Assembly (NCBI GenBank): GCA_046483985.1
Contig: JAWOCD010000003.1
Location: forward strand, 1-37,728
Origin: Promethearchaeia archaeon
GTDB taxonomy: Archaea > Asgardarchaeota > Lokiarchaeia > Sigyniarchaeales > SOKP01
Length of the DNA: 37,728 nt
Direction: 5' to 3'
Shown: positions 20,445 to 26,812 of the stretch, piece after piece
How the letters are laid out: each line of letters begins with the position of its first letter
How positions within the stretch are numbered: the stretch's first letter is position 1
Made by a program: the position numbers and the translations under genes
Notes under the pieces: generated by a model
What the model was told of the DNA's origin: nothing
Databases searched by the model: none
Seen by the model: only the letters and a program-made list of their open reading frames with translations

Positions 20445-20879
20445 ATGGATAATATTTATAAAATTCAAGAGAATTTATATATTGGAGCTTATTGGCCTCG
20501 CCTCAATTTTAAAAAGATTAAAAAAGCTGGAATCACCGCAATAGTTAACCTTATGGAGGAAAATCTTTATACGCCTCCAGATTGTTATTTATATTTATAC
20601 AAAGGATTTCCAGATAAGACATATGTGCCCCATCACTATCTCAAGAAAATTTTCACTTTTATGGATAAACATATAATAGAAAAAAAGGGGAAAGTTCTTG
20701 TTCATTGTGCAATGGGAATTTCTCGGAGCGGAGGAATAGTTGTGGGCTGGCTTCTAAAAGAGAATTTAGAATGGAAATGGGAGGATGCAATGGAATTTGT
20801 TTCTCAATCACGCAAGATTTATCCCGTAGTGGAGATAAAAAACTCGATTTTGGATTATTTGAATAATAAGAATCGATAA
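20445..20879 (+). CDS. Dual-specificity (Cx5R) phosphatase
   Basis: VLVHCAMGISRSG P-loop, NLYIG start, FPD acid loop. Confidence 0.9.
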   Translation: MDNIYKIQENLYIGAYWPRLNFKKIKKAGITAIVNLMEENLYTPPDCYLYLYKGFPDKTYVPHHYLKKIFTFMDKHIIEKKGKVLVHCAMGISRSGGIVVGWLLKENLEWKWEDAMEFVSQSRKIYPVVEIKNSILDYLNNKNR

Positions 20880-20983: not shown

Positions 20984-22132
20984 ATGAGCGATTATTGGGA
21001 TTTTAAAGCGGATAAGGTGAAGCGAGGTGATAATCTTCGGGATGTGTCGCCAGAGGCTGGCAGAACGTGGACCGATGAAGATGGATTTACCCATTACATC
21101 TTCAAGAAAAAGATGTTCCATAATCCTTATTATGATATTCCCGATACGGATCAAGAATTATTTGATAAGTTTTTGAAGGGAGGCTCTCGAAGTTATCCAT
21201 CAGATGGAAATATCCCGACTGATATAGCTGCACGGGAAGCGCGCAAAATTATAAGTTACATCGAGAAGATAGCCAAAGATAGAGATCATCAATATTACAG
21301 CGAAGCCCGGGCGGTGCTTAAAGGGGGAAGATTCAGTATGGTACGAGGGACTGTAAAGCTATATCTGGGAAAATATACGACCAGTGATTGGCGTCGAAAA
21401 AGATTTACGGATGATATTGACTTTTGGGTAAATAAAGTTCACCTCTTTAGACATGTCATGAAAAAATTGGGCTGGAGTAGGAATAAAGACACAAAAGAAT
21501 GGGAAAAATCCATTCGTTGGAAAAATCCTTTTACGCATAAAGAAAGAACTGAGACTTTAATTGCTGCCAATAACCTCAATCTTTCAATGGATTTTGGGGG
21601 AGGGAGTTATCTTGAGAGCTCATCCGTACAAAGCATTATCGCAAAGAAGATTAAAAGAGGCCATAACGTTGACCTCAGCGATATTGTAAACGTTGCAATG
21701 GTCCATAATAAAGCCGCAAAATACTGCACAGAAACGTGGGAACGGTGCTGGCAATCCATCGATGAAGCTGCAAATTCTAGAAGCACGCGGGTGATCTCGA
21801 ATTTGATTAGTTTATCCCTCTATTCCTACGCAATTGCGAGCTATATTCAAAGAGTGGGAAGAGTCTTGGTTGAAAGGCATAATCTGATATTCAATACTTC
21901 TCATTATCCAGATTCGGAACTTGAAGTGTTCTGCAGAGTTTCAATGGAATGGCAAGATTATCTAAAAACGCATGGTCCTGATCTAACTCGTGAACTTATC
22001 CATGAATATATCTTTGAGCAAGGATACCTTAAAAAATATTATGCCAAAAATTTAAAGGATTTCGCAGAGAAAATAATTACGTTAGTTAATGAAAAACTGA
22101 AAATGTTTAATGTGATTATTGAAATTGATTAA
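20984..22132 (+). CDS. Putative Pol-beta-superfamily nucleotidyltransferase (AbiEii-like motifs)
   Basis: FSMVRGT...RFTDDIDF (D144, D146), KKLGW, IIAKKIKRGHNVDLSDI resemble the hGGt / RxTxDhD / K..R..Dh.D motifs of AbiEii-type NTases. Confidence 0.6.
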   Translation: MSDYWDFKADKVKRGDNLRDVSPEAGRTWTDEDGFTHYIFKKKMFHNPYYDIPDTDQELFDKFLKGGSRSYPSDGNIPTDIAAREARKIISYIEKIAKDRDHQYYSEARAVLKGGRFSMVRGTVKLYLGKYTTSDWRRKRFTDDIDFWVNKVHLFRHVMKKLGWSRNKDTKEWEKSIRWKNPFTHKERTETLIAANNLNLSMDFGGGSYLESSSVQSIIAKKIKRGHNVDLSDIVNVAMVHNKAAKYCTETWERCWQSIDEAANSRSTRVISNLISLSLYSYAIASYIQRVGRVLVERHNLIFNTSHYPDSELEVFCRVSMEWQDYLKTHGPDLTRELIHEYIFEQGYLKKYYAKNLKDFAEKIITLVNEKLKMFNVIIEID

Positions 22133-22207
22133 TTCACTTCCACTTCTTCTCTAATTTTTCCAGAAAACGCAATTTTTAGATAATGTCTTTCATTTATTTC
22201 CTTAGAT

Positions 22208-24541
22208 ATGAAAAAGGAACCGAGAATATTGAACATTATTGTTGCTGGACACGCCCAACACGGTAAGTCTTCTCTTATAGAGAAGATCGTGGGCACATTT
22301 CCCGACAACTTGGATTATGAACTCATGCACGGCACCACAGTAAGTCTTAAAGTTATCCAATTTCATTTTGATGATAAAAATTTACTCATCAACTTCCTGG
22401 ATAGTCCGGGACATGCGGACTTCAAAGGCGGGATCGCGTTGGGTTTAGAGTTTGCCGATCTTCTTTTACTGGTTATTTCCGGAAAGGAGGGGTTTCAAGC
22501 CCGTACCTATTGGTTATATGATATTGCCCATGAAAAAGACATACCTATTGTAATTGCAGCAACTAAGATGGACCTCAATAATGCTGATACAAAAAAAATT
22601 CAAGATGTGCTTACTCAACTTGGAGAGAAGAAATATTCCATTATTGAAACATCTGCAAAGGAAGAATTCGGTATCAAAGAATTATTAGATAAACTTGCCA
22701 TATATGTGCCTGAACGTAAGAATGTGAATGCTGAATTAGAGTTTATCGTACTGGGATTTTCCCAAAGAAAGGGAATCGGGGACTTGGTCAATATTGGCAT
22801 CCTTTCGGGAACAATCCAATCCAATAAATATATCACCGAAAAAATTCGCATTCGACAGATCTTTTCATTAGAGGGAAAAGCCTTACAAACAGCGAGTGAG
22901 GGCTCAATTGTACAAATTTCTATGAATATCTCTCCCGACTTTTCCTTAGGGTCTAAATTTTATAAAGGCAAGATATTATCCCCGAAAATTGAAAGTTTAC
23001 TGACCGAGATTAACCCCCGAAAAGAATTTCATTTAAAAATTGAGGATCCCGTCAAGTTTCGAATTGCGGAAGAGACCTTGGAAAACCTAAAAAAAACAGT
23101 TCCCTCTTTTGATTATTTTGTCGAAAAAGATACAATTAATGTATTGGTTCTCGGCGATGTACAATTTGATTTCATAAAAGAAAATCTCGAGCAATTAATT
23201 GAATTTAAAATCCTAGACTCAAAGGTTAAGGGAATTATTACGATCGATAAGATGAGCAAAGGACGATATAAGTCAGCACGGGTCAAGGTAATTCCCCGAT
23301 TTCGCAAGAAGATGTCCGTCACTCGAAACGGTAAAAAAGCAACGGAACTTTATGATATCATCGGTGCCTCAGCCGCCTATGACGCCTTTCACCTTGATGC
23401 CATCCATATTGACATTCTCTCTGGAAAAAATGAAGATGATATCGCCCAAGCAATTGCAAAAGCAATTGAAAAGACTAAATTGGTCAAGATTTTTCCTCAT
23501 CAAGATATCATCATTAAAGTTGAAAATTACCACGAGATTTATGGCTTAATTGAAAAATATAATGCAGATATTCTTTATCAATCTCAATCGAATACATTCT
23601 TTTTACAAGTTAAAAACCACCATTTTGAGAATTTCTTTAATTCGTTGATGAAGATAAGTGACGGACAAGCCGAGATTAATCTGTTTAAATTTGATCAATC
23701 GGAAAAGATACTTTCAGTAGATCCTGGGACCCGACATATTGGATTTTGTATCTTGGAAAAAGGGGAATTACCCTCCTTGTGGTATGTAAATTTAAAAAGA
23801 AGCCTCAACGAGGATCGCGCTCATAGTGCAGCAAAGGCAAAATTGACCAAAGAACTAGATATGTTCTTAGAAAATGACCAAGAATTGATTACCCAGATTT
23901 TTATTGGCCATGGTCCCGGCTCTGAGTTTATGATTGAGTTTCTCATAGAATACTTTGGTATCTCTTGTGAAGATAATATCTGTATCAGTTCGGATCCTAA
24001 GGACATTTCAACCGAAAACGATTTTGAAGAATTGTCTGGTAAGACAGATTTTGGTGCACCCGACATTTATTTGGTGGATGAATTTAAAACCACTAAGGAG
24101 GCGCTCTATCACCTGCAGCAAGGCAAATTGGTGAACGAAGTGAAGTCAAAAGGATTTGTGGACCACGCGATCGCTTCACTACTTATCGCAAAGCGGGGGA
24201 TTAAGGGAGAGACTATTGAGATCAAGAAAAAACCATTACGCCAACTACAAGATTATGTAATTGAGAATTATTCGGGCACGCATTCTTTCAAGACCATTCA
24301 TAATATTGACGATTTAATTGATATAGAACCGGGCATGTACTTGCGCGTGAATGATTCCTCAAAATTGGATTCAAACTTGAATAACGGGGATATTATCCAG
24401 TTTAAAGGATTTGGCAAGGCTTTTCAATCATTTCAAGCGATTAATTTCGTGGGAAATAAAATCATTGTAAAATTTCAAGGGGATGTTAAAGTGAAGAGAG
24501 AATTCTTTGATGTTTTTTCGCCCGTAAGAGAGCGATTTTGA
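22208..24541 (+). CDS. Translation-factor-like GTPase fused to a YqgF/RNase H-fold nuclease domain
   Basis: G1 GHAQHGKS, G2 HGTTV, G3 DSPGH, G4 TKMD, G5 SAK; EF-G-like LGDVQFDFI and SLMKISDGQA; YqgF-like ILSVDPG, IGHG, VDEFKTTKEA and VDHAIA. Confidence 0.8.
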   Translation: MKKEPRILNIIVAGHAQHGKSSLIEKIVGTFPDNLDYELMHGTTVSLKVIQFHFDDKNLLINFLDSPGHADFKGGIALGLEFADLLLLVISGKEGFQARTYWLYDIAHEKDIPIVIAATKMDLNNADTKKIQDVLTQLGEKKYSIIETSAKEEFGIKELLDKLAIYVPERKNVNAELEFIVLGFSQRKGIGDLVNIGILSGTIQSNKYITEKIRIRQIFSLEGKALQTASEGSIVQISMNISPDFSLGSKFYKGKILSPKIESLLTEINPRKEFHLKIEDPVKFRIAEETLENLKKTVPSFDYFVEKDTINVLVLGDVQFDFIKENLEQLIEFKILDSKVKGIITIDKMSKGRYKSARVKVIPRFRKKMSVTRNGKKATELYDIIGASAAYDAFHLDAIHIDILSGKNEDDIAQAIAKAIEKTKLVKIFPHQDIIIKVENYHEIYGLIEKYNADILYQSQSNTFFLQVKNHHFENFFNSLMKISDGQAEINLFKFDQSEKILSVDPGTRHIGFCILEKGELPSLWYVNLKRSLNEDRAHSAAKAKLTKELDMFLENDQELITQIFIGHGPGSEFMIEFLIEYFGISCEDNICISSDPKDISTENDFEELSGKTDFGAPDIYLVDEFKTTKEALYHLQQGKLVNEVKSKGFVDHAIASLLIAKRGIKGETIEIKKKPLRQLQDYVIENYSGTHSFKTIHNIDDLIDIEPGMYLRVNDSSKLDSNLNNGDIIQFKGFGKAFQSFQAINFVGNKIIVKFQGDVKVKREFFDVFSPVRERF

Positions 24542-24647: not shown

Positions 24648-25904
24648 ATGGGATTATCAAAAAAGGTGGCGCTTGTCGGTGCTGGGATGTCGAAATTTGG
24701 GAGACATTTTCCTGAAAAACGTAATCCTGATCTATGGGTTGATGCTTGGCTTAACGCTGTTGACCACGTTGATAACGGAATAGAACCGGAAGAGGTTGAT
24801 GCGTGTTACGTGGGGAATTTCACCGCCGACTTATTTAACCATCAAGGTCATTTAGGACCTCAGATGGCTAATTTAGTGGGATTGACTCCCAAACCCGCAC
24901 CACGGTTTGAAGGAGCATGTGCAAGTAGTGGTATTGCACTAAGGCAAGCGATCTTAGCTATTGCTTCAGGAGTGCACGATGTTATCGCGGTTTCTGGTAT
25001 TGAAACAATGACTGAAGTCCCGACTACTATAGTCACCGATGCACTTGCAGCTGCTGCGGATACGACCTTTGAATATCCAGCGGGTGCAACATTTCCGGGG
25101 TTATACGGCGCAATTGCAACCGCACATATGGATAAATATGGCACAACTGCAGGAGATTTGATGAAAGTAGCGATAAAGAATCATAAGAACGGAAAACAAA
25201 ATCCGTTTGCTCAGATGCAACAAACGATTTCAGATATCATGAAGAGCAAGCAAAGAAAGTACGAAAGCCAAGGGAAGAATGTACCAGACTGGGAGGATGA
25301 ATTAGATTTCTTAAAAAGTTCAGCAAACCCGTATATTGCTTATCCACTTCGGTTGTTTGACTGTTCACTTATCACTGATGGAGGCGCGTGTCTCTTTTTA
25401 ACATCTGAGGAGGTCGCGGAAAACTATACGGACGACCCCATCTGGATTGCAGGAACGGGGCAAGGAAGTGCTTCATTATCATTACATGATCGAAAACACT
25501 TAACCAGTTTTCTCGCTACGAGAGAAGCTTCCAGACAAGCATATGAAATGGCAGGAGCTGCCCCACAAGATATACAAATTGCCGAAGTACATGATTGTTT
25601 TACGATTGCAGAAATCTTGGCTATGGAAGACCTGGGATTTTATAAGAAGGGTGAGGCAGTTCAAGCTGTCCGAGCGGGTGAAACCGCACGCGATGGTGCT
25701 CTACCAATAAACACTTCTGGAGGTCTAAAAAGCAAAGGACACCCAGTAGGTGCTACAGGAGCTGGCCAAGCCGTTGAGATATTTAAACAAATGCGCGGAA
25801 TAGCAGAAAGAGATCGACAAGTTGATTTCAATGTCGAGCGTGCGATGACGCATAACCTTGGAGGCTCTGGAGGTACATGTGTGGTAACCATATATGAAAA
25901 ATGA
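24648..25904 (+). CDS. Archaeal/SCP2-type thiolase (acetyl-CoA C-acyltransferase)
   Basis: EGACASS, CSLITDGGA, EVHDCF, GGLKSKGHPVGATG, HNLGG. Confidence 0.93.
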   Translation: MGLSKKVALVGAGMSKFGRHFPEKRNPDLWVDAWLNAVDHVDNGIEPEEVDACYVGNFTADLFNHQGHLGPQMANLVGLTPKPAPRFEGACASSGIALRQAILAIASGVHDVIAVSGIETMTEVPTTIVTDALAAAADTTFEYPAGATFPGLYGAIATAHMDKYGTTAGDLMKVAIKNHKNGKQNPFAQMQQTISDIMKSKQRKYESQGKNVPDWEDELDFLKSSANPYIAYPLRLFDCSLITDGGACLFLTSEEVAENYTDDPIWIAGTGQGSASLSLHDRKHLTSFLATREASRQAYEMAGAAPQDIQIAEVHDCFTIAEILAMEDLGFYKKGEAVQAVRAGETARDGALPINTSGGLKSKGHPVGATGAGQAVEIFKQMRGIAERDRQVDFNVERAMTHNLGGSGGTCVVTIYEK

Positions 25905-25917
25905 GGTGAAAGAAAAA

Positions 25918-26337
25918 ATGTCAGAAAAAGAAATAACCGTTTACAATTACTTACAAGGCATAAATAATAAGAAGATTTTGGGTTCAAAGTGTAAGGAATG
26001 CGGAGCTCAATTTGTTCCCCCTCGAAAACTCTGTACCGAGTGTAATTCAACTGATTTGGAATGGATGGAGATGTCGGGGAGAGGAAAAGTTGTGGCATTT
26101 TCCGCAATTGGGGTTGGAACAAAATTCTTTGTCGATAAAGGCTATTCCATGAAAAATCCGTATTGTTTTTCGGTAATTGAATTAGAAGAAGGTCCAATGA
26201 TTTCGGGGCAGTTAGTAGGAGTAGATGAGAAGCATGCTGATACTATAAATGTTGGTATGCCGGTAAAAGCCAAATTTTTAGAAACCGAAGTAGAAGGGGA
26301 AGAGCCGCGGATTGATTTAGGATTTGAACCAGAGTAA
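25918..26337 (+). CDS. DUF35 family Zn-ribbon/OB-fold thiolase partner
   Basis: CKECG..FVPPR..CTEC plus OB fold; adjacent to the thiolase; GAGGTGA precedes ATG 25918. Confidence 0.9.
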   Translation: MSEKEITVYNYLQGINNKKILGSKCKECGAQFVPPRKLCTECNSTDLEWMEMSGRGKVVAFSAIGVGTKFFVDKGYSMKNPYCFSVIELEEGPMISGQLVGVDEKHADTINVGMPVKAKFLETEVEGEEPRIDLGFEPE

Positions 26338-26464: not shown

Positions 26465-26812
26465 ATGTCTGATTTTGAAGAAAAAGTATTGGAAAGACTC
26501 GACAGTATCGTGGAGAAACTTGACCAATTGCTCAATGGCGAAACATCAAGTGAATTTAAAGAGTCTGCTGAGAGTTCAAGCGGTGACGAAGCAGAAACAG
26601 TAAAACCGTCTGAGGTAGTAAACAAGATGGAACAAGAAGAGCGAGAAAAAGAAGCCCCTCCAGTAAAAGGAAGAAGAATATGTCCAGAATGTGGGGAAAC
26701 TGATTTTAAAACGATTGAGAACAAGGATCGTGTACTACATCAACAAGGAGGCATGAAAATTTACGCTAAGAAGTATATTTGCAAAAAATGCGGACATACA
26801 ATGAAAAAATAA
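26465..26812 (+). CDS. Hypothetical protein with C-terminal zinc ribbon
   Basis: N-terminal short coiled segment, acidic linker, CPECG...CKKCG. Confidence 0.75.
   Translation: MSDFEEKVLERLDSIVEKLDQLLNGETSSEFKESAESSSGDEAETVKPSEVVNKMEQEEREKEAPPVKGRRICPECGETDFKTIENKDRVLHQQGGMKIYAKKYICKKCGHTMKK

Follow-up and report, generated by a model that had tools for sequence, protein, structure and literature searches.

A stretch of 37,728 nucleotides from a Promethearchaeia archaeon (positions 1 to 37,728 of contig JAWOCD010000003.1, assembly GCA_046483985.1; hereafter, the window) carries at positions 22208-24541 of the plus strand a gene that joins a translational GTPase (trGTPase) to a nuclease domain in one polypeptide. 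Amino acids (aa) 1-496 are a compact relative of EF-G and EF-2 that has no G' insert and consists of domains G, II, III, a short basic IV and V, and the remaining 280 residues form a complete nuclease domain of YqgF/RuvX type with an SH3-like barrel after it. The architecture of this GTPase-nuclease, its intact motifs, its conservation and its distribution were demonstrated directly. In our judgement the chances are about even that it docks at the ribosome and cuts RNA there under GTP control, in a conditional role; all three elements of this function, ribosome docking, RNA as the substrate and gating by GTP, we infer.

The open reading frame (ORF) starts with ATG, has zero internal stops and encodes 777 aa. 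A word-indexed search returned approximately 95 full-length homologues with 55-85% identity, annotated merely as "GTP-binding protein" and derived, where a source was named, from metagenome-assembled genomes (MAGs) of Lokiarchaeota, Promethearchaeota and Hermodarchaeota, together with one further protein at 33% identity. In an exhaustive HMMER pass through 1.84 billion representatives, only about 10 clusters matched beyond domains G and II (G+II), namely the main clade, five divergent full-length clusters (735-744 aa) and fragments. The divergent clade is 30-35% identical (29-30% in Methanopyrus) and was found in Asgardarchaeia/Odinarchaeota MAGs, Candidatus Asgardarchaeum and a RefSeq Methanopyrus sp. 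genome. In an alignment of 34 sequences, which underlies all conservation values given here, mean column identity was 0.60-0.71 in each domain except the acidic loop of the nuclease (aa 585-618), indicating that selection acts over the full length of the protein. Together, the full-length homologues and this conservation show that the fusion is no assembly chimera. The label "chimeric", given to the gene in an earlier note made from the DNA letters alone, is not supported, and the full-length homologues whose absence elsewhere that note had considered do exist in numbers.

The G domain was matched by Pfam GTP_EFTU at aa 6-168 with an E-value of 2.4e-27 (96.2 bits against a cut-off of 26.5). 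Its motifs are the P-loop AGHAQHGKSS (aa 13-22), T44 of switch I, DSPGH69, TKMD (aa 119-122) and SAK (aa 149-151), and residues G14, H15, G19, K20, S21, T44, D65, G68, H69, K120, D122 and S149 were invariant in 34 of 34 homologues. This invariance of the G-motif residues and of His69 held down to 29% identity. In trGTPases, the histidine of the DxxGH motif takes part in the GTP hydrolysis that the sarcin-ricin loop activates. Sequences of IF2, LepA and SelB from the Protein Data Bank (PDB) aligned to the protein up to about aa 240. The features that define the trGTPase superfamily are therefore present: G1-G5 motifs with the DxxGH histidine, and a domain II barrel right after G. In these respects the earlier note was right, since its five G motifs and catalytic His69 are supported by the Pfam match and by the invariance in the homologues, and its domain II by the LepA, IF2 and SelB alignments through aa ~237-255.

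The same note had called G+II "SelB/EF-Tu-like", and here our results differed. Compared with known chains, the G+II profile matched LepA best (8e-32, positions 4-255), followed by IF2 (3e-30), TetO/M (1e-28) and SelB (3e-22). No NCBIfam equivalog model (EF-G, aEF-2, LepA, BipA, RF3, Tet, IF-2) was passed, the best scores being 44-79 bits against cut-offs of 242-1400; the models for selB, IF-2, lepA, Tet, EF-G and others covered only G+II and remained far below their cut-offs (63.6 bits against 583 for EF-G, and 78.6 bits against 242.25 for SelB, TIGR00475). The three best non-family matches of the exhaustive search were LepA-type proteins, and labelling of the 139 best non-family representatives by E. 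coli and own-genome references gave 100 IF2-type, 28 LepA-type, 8 EF-G-type, 6 SelB-type and 1 BipA-type assignments. A maximum-likelihood tree of G+II (55 rows, 259 columns) recovered IF2 (100/99), EF1S including SelB (100/99) and crown EF2, which comprises LepA, BipA, EF-G, aEF-2 and RF3 (100/97). The GTPase-nuclease family formed a clade of its own (100/98), which a 94/90 split placed next to crown EF2 but outside it. The family belonged neither to the SelB clade (97/93) nor to EF1S, and the LepA clade was supported at 99/94 without it. A SelB-like or chimeric origin of G+II was thus rejected as a specific claim, because LepA and IF2 score better and the tree excludes the family from the EF1/SelB clade (100/99). 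The GTPase tree proposed in the earlier note placed the family in its own clade beside the EF2 family and removed the SelB placement; it left room for a deep sister position to EF1S, since moving the family to EF1S as a whole was not rejected in the approximately unbiased test (log-likelihood difference 1.94, p 0.41). G+II forms a separate deep lineage; its placement beside the EF2 family is not decisive. Assignment of the whole protein to the EF2 family follows mainly from domains III-V, which have been listed as innovations of that family, in which only LepA and TypA (BipA) are without G' (Atkinson 2015, PMC4342817).

Domains III and V follow domain II, as expected of an EF2-family member, and domain IV lies between them, as in the five-domain members of that family. 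By sequence, a profile of aa 250-500 matched domain III of TetM/TetO (E 8e-4), with weaker matches of EF-2 and RF3 at the same place. Pfam EFG_C and EFG_III each matched single members only (EFG_C in one at E 0.0013), and RF3_C matched weakly in 11 of the 34. The AlphaFold2 (AF2) model of this middle region had a predicted local distance difference test score (pLDDT) of 79.7, and Foldseek matched it to EF-G, EF-2 and Snu114 chains only, with a best E-value of 7e-11. VIA-align superposed aa 263-496 (model residues 14-247) on residues ~404-690 of EF-G with a Z-score of 12.4 and a root-mean-square deviation (rmsd) of 3.5 A over 167 residues; Snu114 chains scored as well as EF-G. LepA, which has domains III and V without IV, could be fitted at an rmsd of 12-13 A only. 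The good superposition on EF-G and the poor fit of LepA indicate that the protein has domain III, a shortened domain IV and domain V, and the Foldseek, VIA-align and TetM/TetO matches bear out the same three assignments in the earlier note. In the model, domain IV is a beta-rich alpha/beta domain, shorter than that of EF-G, and it is basic, with a mean net charge of +5.8 in the family.

The nuclease domain begins about six residues after domain V. A profile of the C-terminal 284 aa found nothing meaningful among PDB sequences, and the relation to YqgF comes from fold comparison and Pfam only. RuvX (PF03652), the only recurrent Pfam family in this part of the protein, recognized 32 of 34 members (E <= 0.1, with a lowest value of 2.5e-8) and gave a sub-threshold match at aa 607-660 of the window protein; Tex_YqgF was found in one of the 34 (E 0.085). 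The C-terminal AF2 model (pLDDT 70.8) was good except in the acidic loop and the linker. Foldseek matched the nuclease model to RuvC at E 7.6e-5, and VIA-align, with all matches spanning model residues 1-177, gave Z-scores of 12.8 for Tex, 11.7 for Spt6, 11.3-11.6 for MOC1 and poxvirus resolvases, 11.1 for RuvC, 10.9 for Deinococcus radiodurans YqgF, 10.1 for Mycobacterium tuberculosis RuvX and 9.9 for E. coli YqgF. In a MAFFT alignment, E. coli YqgF (138 residues) was collinear end to end with aa 497-668, and its residues D9, G60, G67, D95-E96, E102 and D122 corresponded to D505, G567, G571, D624-E625, E631 and D652, respectively. The family profile matched the single E. coli YqgF sequence with E 0.026 at Z=1, which is not significant alone. 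D505-P-G, G567, G569, G571, E625, E631 and D652-H653 were invariant and D624 was conserved in at least 90% of the homologues, many of which do not have the 34-residue acidic loop (aa ~585-618). Thus, judged from its residues, the nuclease domain is complete and apparently active. The YqgF-type RNase H fold at aa ~500-665 and the D505/E625/D652 triad had both been named in the earlier note; the Foldseek and VIA-align matches of the model confirm the former, and the invariance of the three residues the latter.

The predicted beta-rich tail was also confirmed, as a barrel modelled at pLDDT 80-90. In the atlas model of the window protein it resembled the SF1-helicase 2B/TraI_2B and CUL7 CPH barrels (TM ~0.6, ~77 residues), and Foldseek aligned integrase chains consisting of catalytic core and C-terminal domains (CCD+CTD, core plus SH3) over the whole C-terminal model. 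The atlas model and the integrase alignments suggest the designation SH3-like; a language-model feature search of the tail was uninformative, with scores of 0.75 only. The barrel is basic in most family members.

The distribution of the gene bears on its function. The C-terminal profile detected it in 36 of the phylum's 400 genomes and, within the window's family, in 33 of 134; inside genera its occurrence was patchy (2/54, 11/42 and 0/5). The window's genome, which is 97% complete, contains the canonical translation factors as separate genes, indicating that the GTPase-nuclease is an added function, and it contains no second RuvX-like sequence. The gene is thus accessory, mostly vertically inherited, repeatedly lost and without a dedicated partner. 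Outside the Asgard phylum, a Methanopyrus sp. genome (GCA_054039215.1, L001 8001-10232) encodes a full-length orthologue of 743 aa, which groups with the orthologues of the Asgardarchaeia/Odinarchaeota-labelled MAGs; this occurrence may reflect gene transfer between phyla. The stop codon of the Methanopyrus orthologue overlaps the start of a 227-aa gene of unknown family.

Translational GTPases act at the ribosomal GTPase centre, and E. coli YqgF acts in 5' maturation of 16S rRNA from its precursor. In the GTPase-nuclease, the strictly retained catalytic apparatus of a trGTPase and the EF-G domain arrangement argue for continued use of the ribosomal factor site. Its GTP form would dock at this site, as all trGTPases do, and the sarcin-ricin loop would activate His69. 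Docking would hold the nuclease, which is tethered to domain V, against ribosome-bound RNA, possibly rRNA (in precursor or mature form), mRNA, or tRNA near the A-site side, and GTP hydrolysis would either license or end the cut and release the factor. In LepA and BipA, too, an additional domain comes after domain V, and on the ribosome it extends to the A-site/peptidyl-transferase side; if the YqgF site is placed likewise, it would face ribosome-bound RNA. Because the gene is dispensable and patchily distributed, its role would be conditional, for instance in dealing with ribosomes that are stalled or in surplus or in an rRNA-processing step that is optional, and not a core step of translation. 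The same distribution argues against a core role in rRNA maturation. We also counted in favour of this reading the basic domain IV and the RNA- and translation-related neighbours of the gene in the divergent clade.

Several observations weigh against a ribosome-docked RNA nuclease. The RuvX match of the window protein scored 16.5-19.6 bits, below the gathering cut-off of 29.2 bits. EF-2-like GTPases can act off the ribosome, as illustrated by Snu114, which scores like EF-G, and the shortened domain IV may make A-site contacts that differ from those of EF-G. Relatives of the nuclease domain such as RuvX and RuvC also cut DNA junctions, and Tex and Spt6, its best structural matches, are to our knowledge not known to cut anything. 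Finally, the gene is missing from most relatives, including several genomes that are 98-100% complete, and is therefore not needed for ordinary ribosome function.

The absence of known nuclease activity in Tex (Z 12.8) and Spt6 (Z 11.7) leads to the alternative that the YqgF domain and the barrel only bind RNA, and that the protein is a non-cutting ribosome factor which serves in GTP-dependent assembly, rescue or hibernation in the manner of LepA and BipA. LepA and IF2 are the closest relatives of G+II by score, and the annotation of the E. coli proteins LepA and BipA describes both as factors of subunit biogenesis or assembly. We consider this explanation unlikely, because D505, D624-E625 and D652, the counterparts of the catalytic residues in the alignment with E. 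coli YqgF, have hardly changed, if at all, down to 29% identity, and neither have the YqgF motifs around them; in a pure binding module, drift of the acidic set would be expected.

It is also conceivable, but in our view rather improbable, that the protein works off the ribosome as a GTP-switched, structure-specific nuclease for branched DNA such as Holliday junctions or flaps. The EF-G-like body would then be a reused conformational switch, for which Snu114 offers the precedent of an EF-2-like GTPase that has left the ribosome, and the SH3-like barrel would bind DNA. RuvC, chloroplast MOC1, the poxvirus resolvases and M. tuberculosis RuvX score close to Tex (Z 10-11.6), the tail resembles the 2B barrels of SF1 DNA helicases and TraI as well as the C-terminal domain of integrases, and a DNA ligase gene is adjacent in one divergent locus. 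However, the catalytic histidine and the five G motifs are strictly kept, which makes sense only with the sarcin-ricin loop or an equivalent activator, domains III-V retain the EF-G arrangement, and the 36 loci that we examined overall show no conserved recombination or repair genes in the neighbourhood.

These 36 loci also place the gene in its chromosomal setting. In the Loki-clade loci the gene always lies in one block at a fixed chromosomal position, which was seen in 30+ genomes. The order of this block is GlpA-like, FAD oxidoreductase, DUF1667, dual-specificity phosphatase (DSP), GTPase-nuclease and a 115-aa zinc-ribbon protein; ABC transporter genes belong to the same housekeeping block, and variable gene insertions occur on either side of the GTPase-nuclease gene. 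In close relatives with complete genomes that do not carry the gene, the same block is present; exactly this gene is missing from it, and its two neighbours remain. The DSP and zinc-ribbon genes are on the same strand as the GTPase-nuclease in about 26 of the 36 loci. They flank the gene in most Loki-clade loci, yet were rejected as dedicated partners, because they persist without the gene and are missing from the divergent-clade loci, and no conserved partner gene was found in the 36 loci. A module of phosphatase, nucleotidyltransferase and GTPase/nuclease was likewise rejected: the 382-aa ORF between the phosphatase and GTPase-nuclease genes is present in one of the 36 loci, a locus-specific insertion where other genomes carry other inserts, and has no Pfam or PADLOC match. 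The thiolase and ChsH2/DUF35-type genes downstream form an insertion that recurs in four other loci, and in genomes without the GTPase gene this pair lies elsewhere in the same region.

The divergent-clade loci share no neighbours with the Loki clade and contain housekeeping, RNA and translation genes, among them those for CysRS, ThrRS, TtuA, DNA ligase, which adjoins the GTPase-nuclease in one locus, and RsmB/F. A gene for an RsmB/F-type 5-methylcytosine RNA methyltransferase with a PUA or NusB module was found within ~6 kb in three of the four divergent-clade loci (L048, L051 and L001); this proximity may be plain synteny, two of the three loci being from related genomes. PADLOC-DB 2.0 gave no defence-model match at E <= 0.01 for the GTPase-nuclease and three neighbours, and on this ground membership in a known defence system was rejected. 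That the protein is a ribosome-directed nuclease toxin, silent until infection or stress triggers it to stop translation (abortive infection), is improbable: the presence/absence polymorphism in close relatives (33/134 of the family, 2/54 and 11/42 in two genera), the precise absence from the same syntenic block and the variable insertions on both sides would suit such an effector, but PADLOC recognizes neither the gene nor its neighbours, the one fixed position between the GlpA-like operon, DSP and ABC transporter genes in 30+ genomes indicates vertical descent with losses and not mobility, no sensor, antitoxin or immunity gene is conserved, the flanking genes persist without the gene, and the divergent-clade neighbours are housekeeping genes.

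Upstream of the gene, in a 75-nucleotide (nt) intergenic spacer, we noticed by eye an A/T-rich element, TTTTTAGATAAT, at window positions 22184-22195, 13-24 nt 5' of the ATG. This element could be an archaeal TATA box from which the GTPase-nuclease gene has a transcript of its own, leaderless or with a short leader. Positions of the other features are compiled in the table.

Table. Features of the GTPase-nuclease gene and of its surroundings in the window
Feature	Window position	Strand	Basis or remark
Dual-specificity-phosphatase-fold gene	20445-20879	+	Pfam DSPc, E 8e-18; median 89 nt upstream
382-aa ORF between the phosphatase and GTPase-nuclease genes	20984-22132	+	No Pfam/PADLOC match
Whole gene, EF-G-like GTPase plus YqgF nuclease	22208..24541	+	Intact ORF, 777 aa plus stop; homologues
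G domain, aa 1-172, no G' insert	22208..22723	+	Pfam GTP_EFTU; motif residues invariant in 34 sequences
His69 codon, catalytic histidine of translational GTPases (DxxGH)	22412..22414	+	Invariant in 34
Domain II beta-barrel, aa ~173-262	22724..22993	+	LepA aligned over profile positions 4-255; IF2 and SelB to ~237-240
EF-G-type domain III, aa ~263-338	22994..23221	+	TetM/TetO profile match; fold match
Shortened, basic domain IV, aa ~339-432	23222..23503	+	Between III and V in superposition on EF-G 404-690
EF-G-type domain V, aa ~433-496	23504..23695	+	Fold match; weak Pfam EFG_C, RF3_C in some members
Complete YqgF/RuvX-type RNase H-fold nuclease domain, aa ~497-672	23696..24223	+	RuvX Pfam; fold matches; YqgF collinearity
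D505 codon, motif DPGTRHxGF	23720..23722	+	Invariant; aligns with D9 of E. coli YqgF
Variable acidic loop in nuclease domain, aa ~585-618	23960..24061	+	Gapped columns; pLDDT <50; column conservation 0.41
D624-E625 codons, motif VDEFKTTKEA	24077..24082	+	Alignment with D95-E96 of E. coli YqgF; conservation
D652-H653 codons, motif VDHAIA	24161..24166	+	Both invariant; counterpart of D652 in E. coli YqgF is D122
C-terminal small beta-barrel, aa ~701-777, SH3-like	24308..24538	+	Model confidence; barrel matches
Thiolase gene and gene for ChsH2/DUF35-type OB-fold plus zinc ribbon	24648-26337	+	Between GTPase-nuclease and zinc-ribbon genes
115-aa zinc-ribbon protein gene	26465-26812	+	Median 174 nt downstream

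Elsewhere in the same genome, the P-loop codons of two other GTPase genes are interrupted. The gene for an aEF-2 paralogue carries a 30-nt insert between the codons for AHID and HGKTT (G000:C115:48042-48071, plus strand), and the aIF2-gamma gene carries a 32-nt insert between those for GHVDHGK and TTLVKALTG (G000:C40:3388-3419, gene on the minus strand). Both inserts contain stop codons and fold as a hairpin with an exon-exon pairing clamp and 3-5-nt bulges (RNAfold -23.0 and -26.9 kcal/mol, respectively), which gives them the look of bulge-helix-bulge mini-introns. The P-loop codons of the GTPase-nuclease are uninterrupted.

We know of no translational GTPase that carries a nuclease, and literature searches found none. 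Full-text searches returned no description of a fusion between a trGTPase and a YqgF/RuvX nuclease, and neither the trGTPase census (PMC4342817) nor the study of Asgard EF-2 paralogues (PMC6143161) describes this family; the earlier note's statement that no trGTPase family with this architecture had been described thus stands, as far as these searches show. It is possible, although we put it a little below an even chance, that this is the first translational GTPase with its own catalytic effector, in which an EF-G-like body docks a GTP-switched nuclease that cuts rRNA, mRNA or tRNA on selected ribosomes. If so, the family would be a new class of ribosome-associated endonuclease, in which RNA cleavage is coupled to the ribosomal GTPase centre in a new way. 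It would also be a candidate for the archaeal activity, still unknown, by which RNA is cut on ribosomes that are stalled or in surplus, and would provide a concrete, testable enzyme for archaeal ribosome quality control or turnover. The orthologues of Methanopyrus and Asgardarchaeum should be thermostable and thus convenient for biochemistry and cryo-electron microscopy. The family would also add a deep-branching, five-domain lineage without G' to what is known of EF2-family history; LepA and BipA, the EF2-family members without G', had been regarded as missing from archaea.

Among known systems, the GTPase-nuclease resembles EF-G, aEF-2, Tet(M), Tet(O) and Snu114 in the order of domains G, II, III, IV and V, in domains III-V that can be superposed on EF-G ~404-690, in the TetM/TetO-like sequence of domain III, and in the catalytic histidine and G motifs. 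It differs from them in having neither G' nor an archaeal-type insert, in a domain IV that is about a quarter shorter, in the 280 residues of nuclease plus barrel after domain V, in the position of G+II outside crown EF2 and in being dispensable. With LepA (EF4) and BipA/TypA it shares the lack of a G' insert and an extra functional domain after domain V, and LepA is its best G+II match. These two proteins, in contrast, have no domain IV, are bacterial or organellar and carry C-terminal domains that are not nucleases, and the LepA clade does not include the GTPase-nuclease family. The likeness to YqgF/RuvX (PF03652) consists in the RNase H-like fold (Z 9.9-10.9), the collinear acidic residues and the Pfam match in 32 of 34 members. 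Whereas YqgF is a stand-alone bacterial protein of ~140 aa, the domain here is archaeal, contains the 34-residue acidic loop and is fused to a GTPase and a barrel. The YqgF-like domains of Tex and Spt6 are its best structural matches and are likewise modules of larger RNA-associated proteins; those proteins have helix-turn-helix, HhH, S1 and SH2 modules that the GTPase-nuclease does not have, and the GTPase-nuclease has its acidic set intact.

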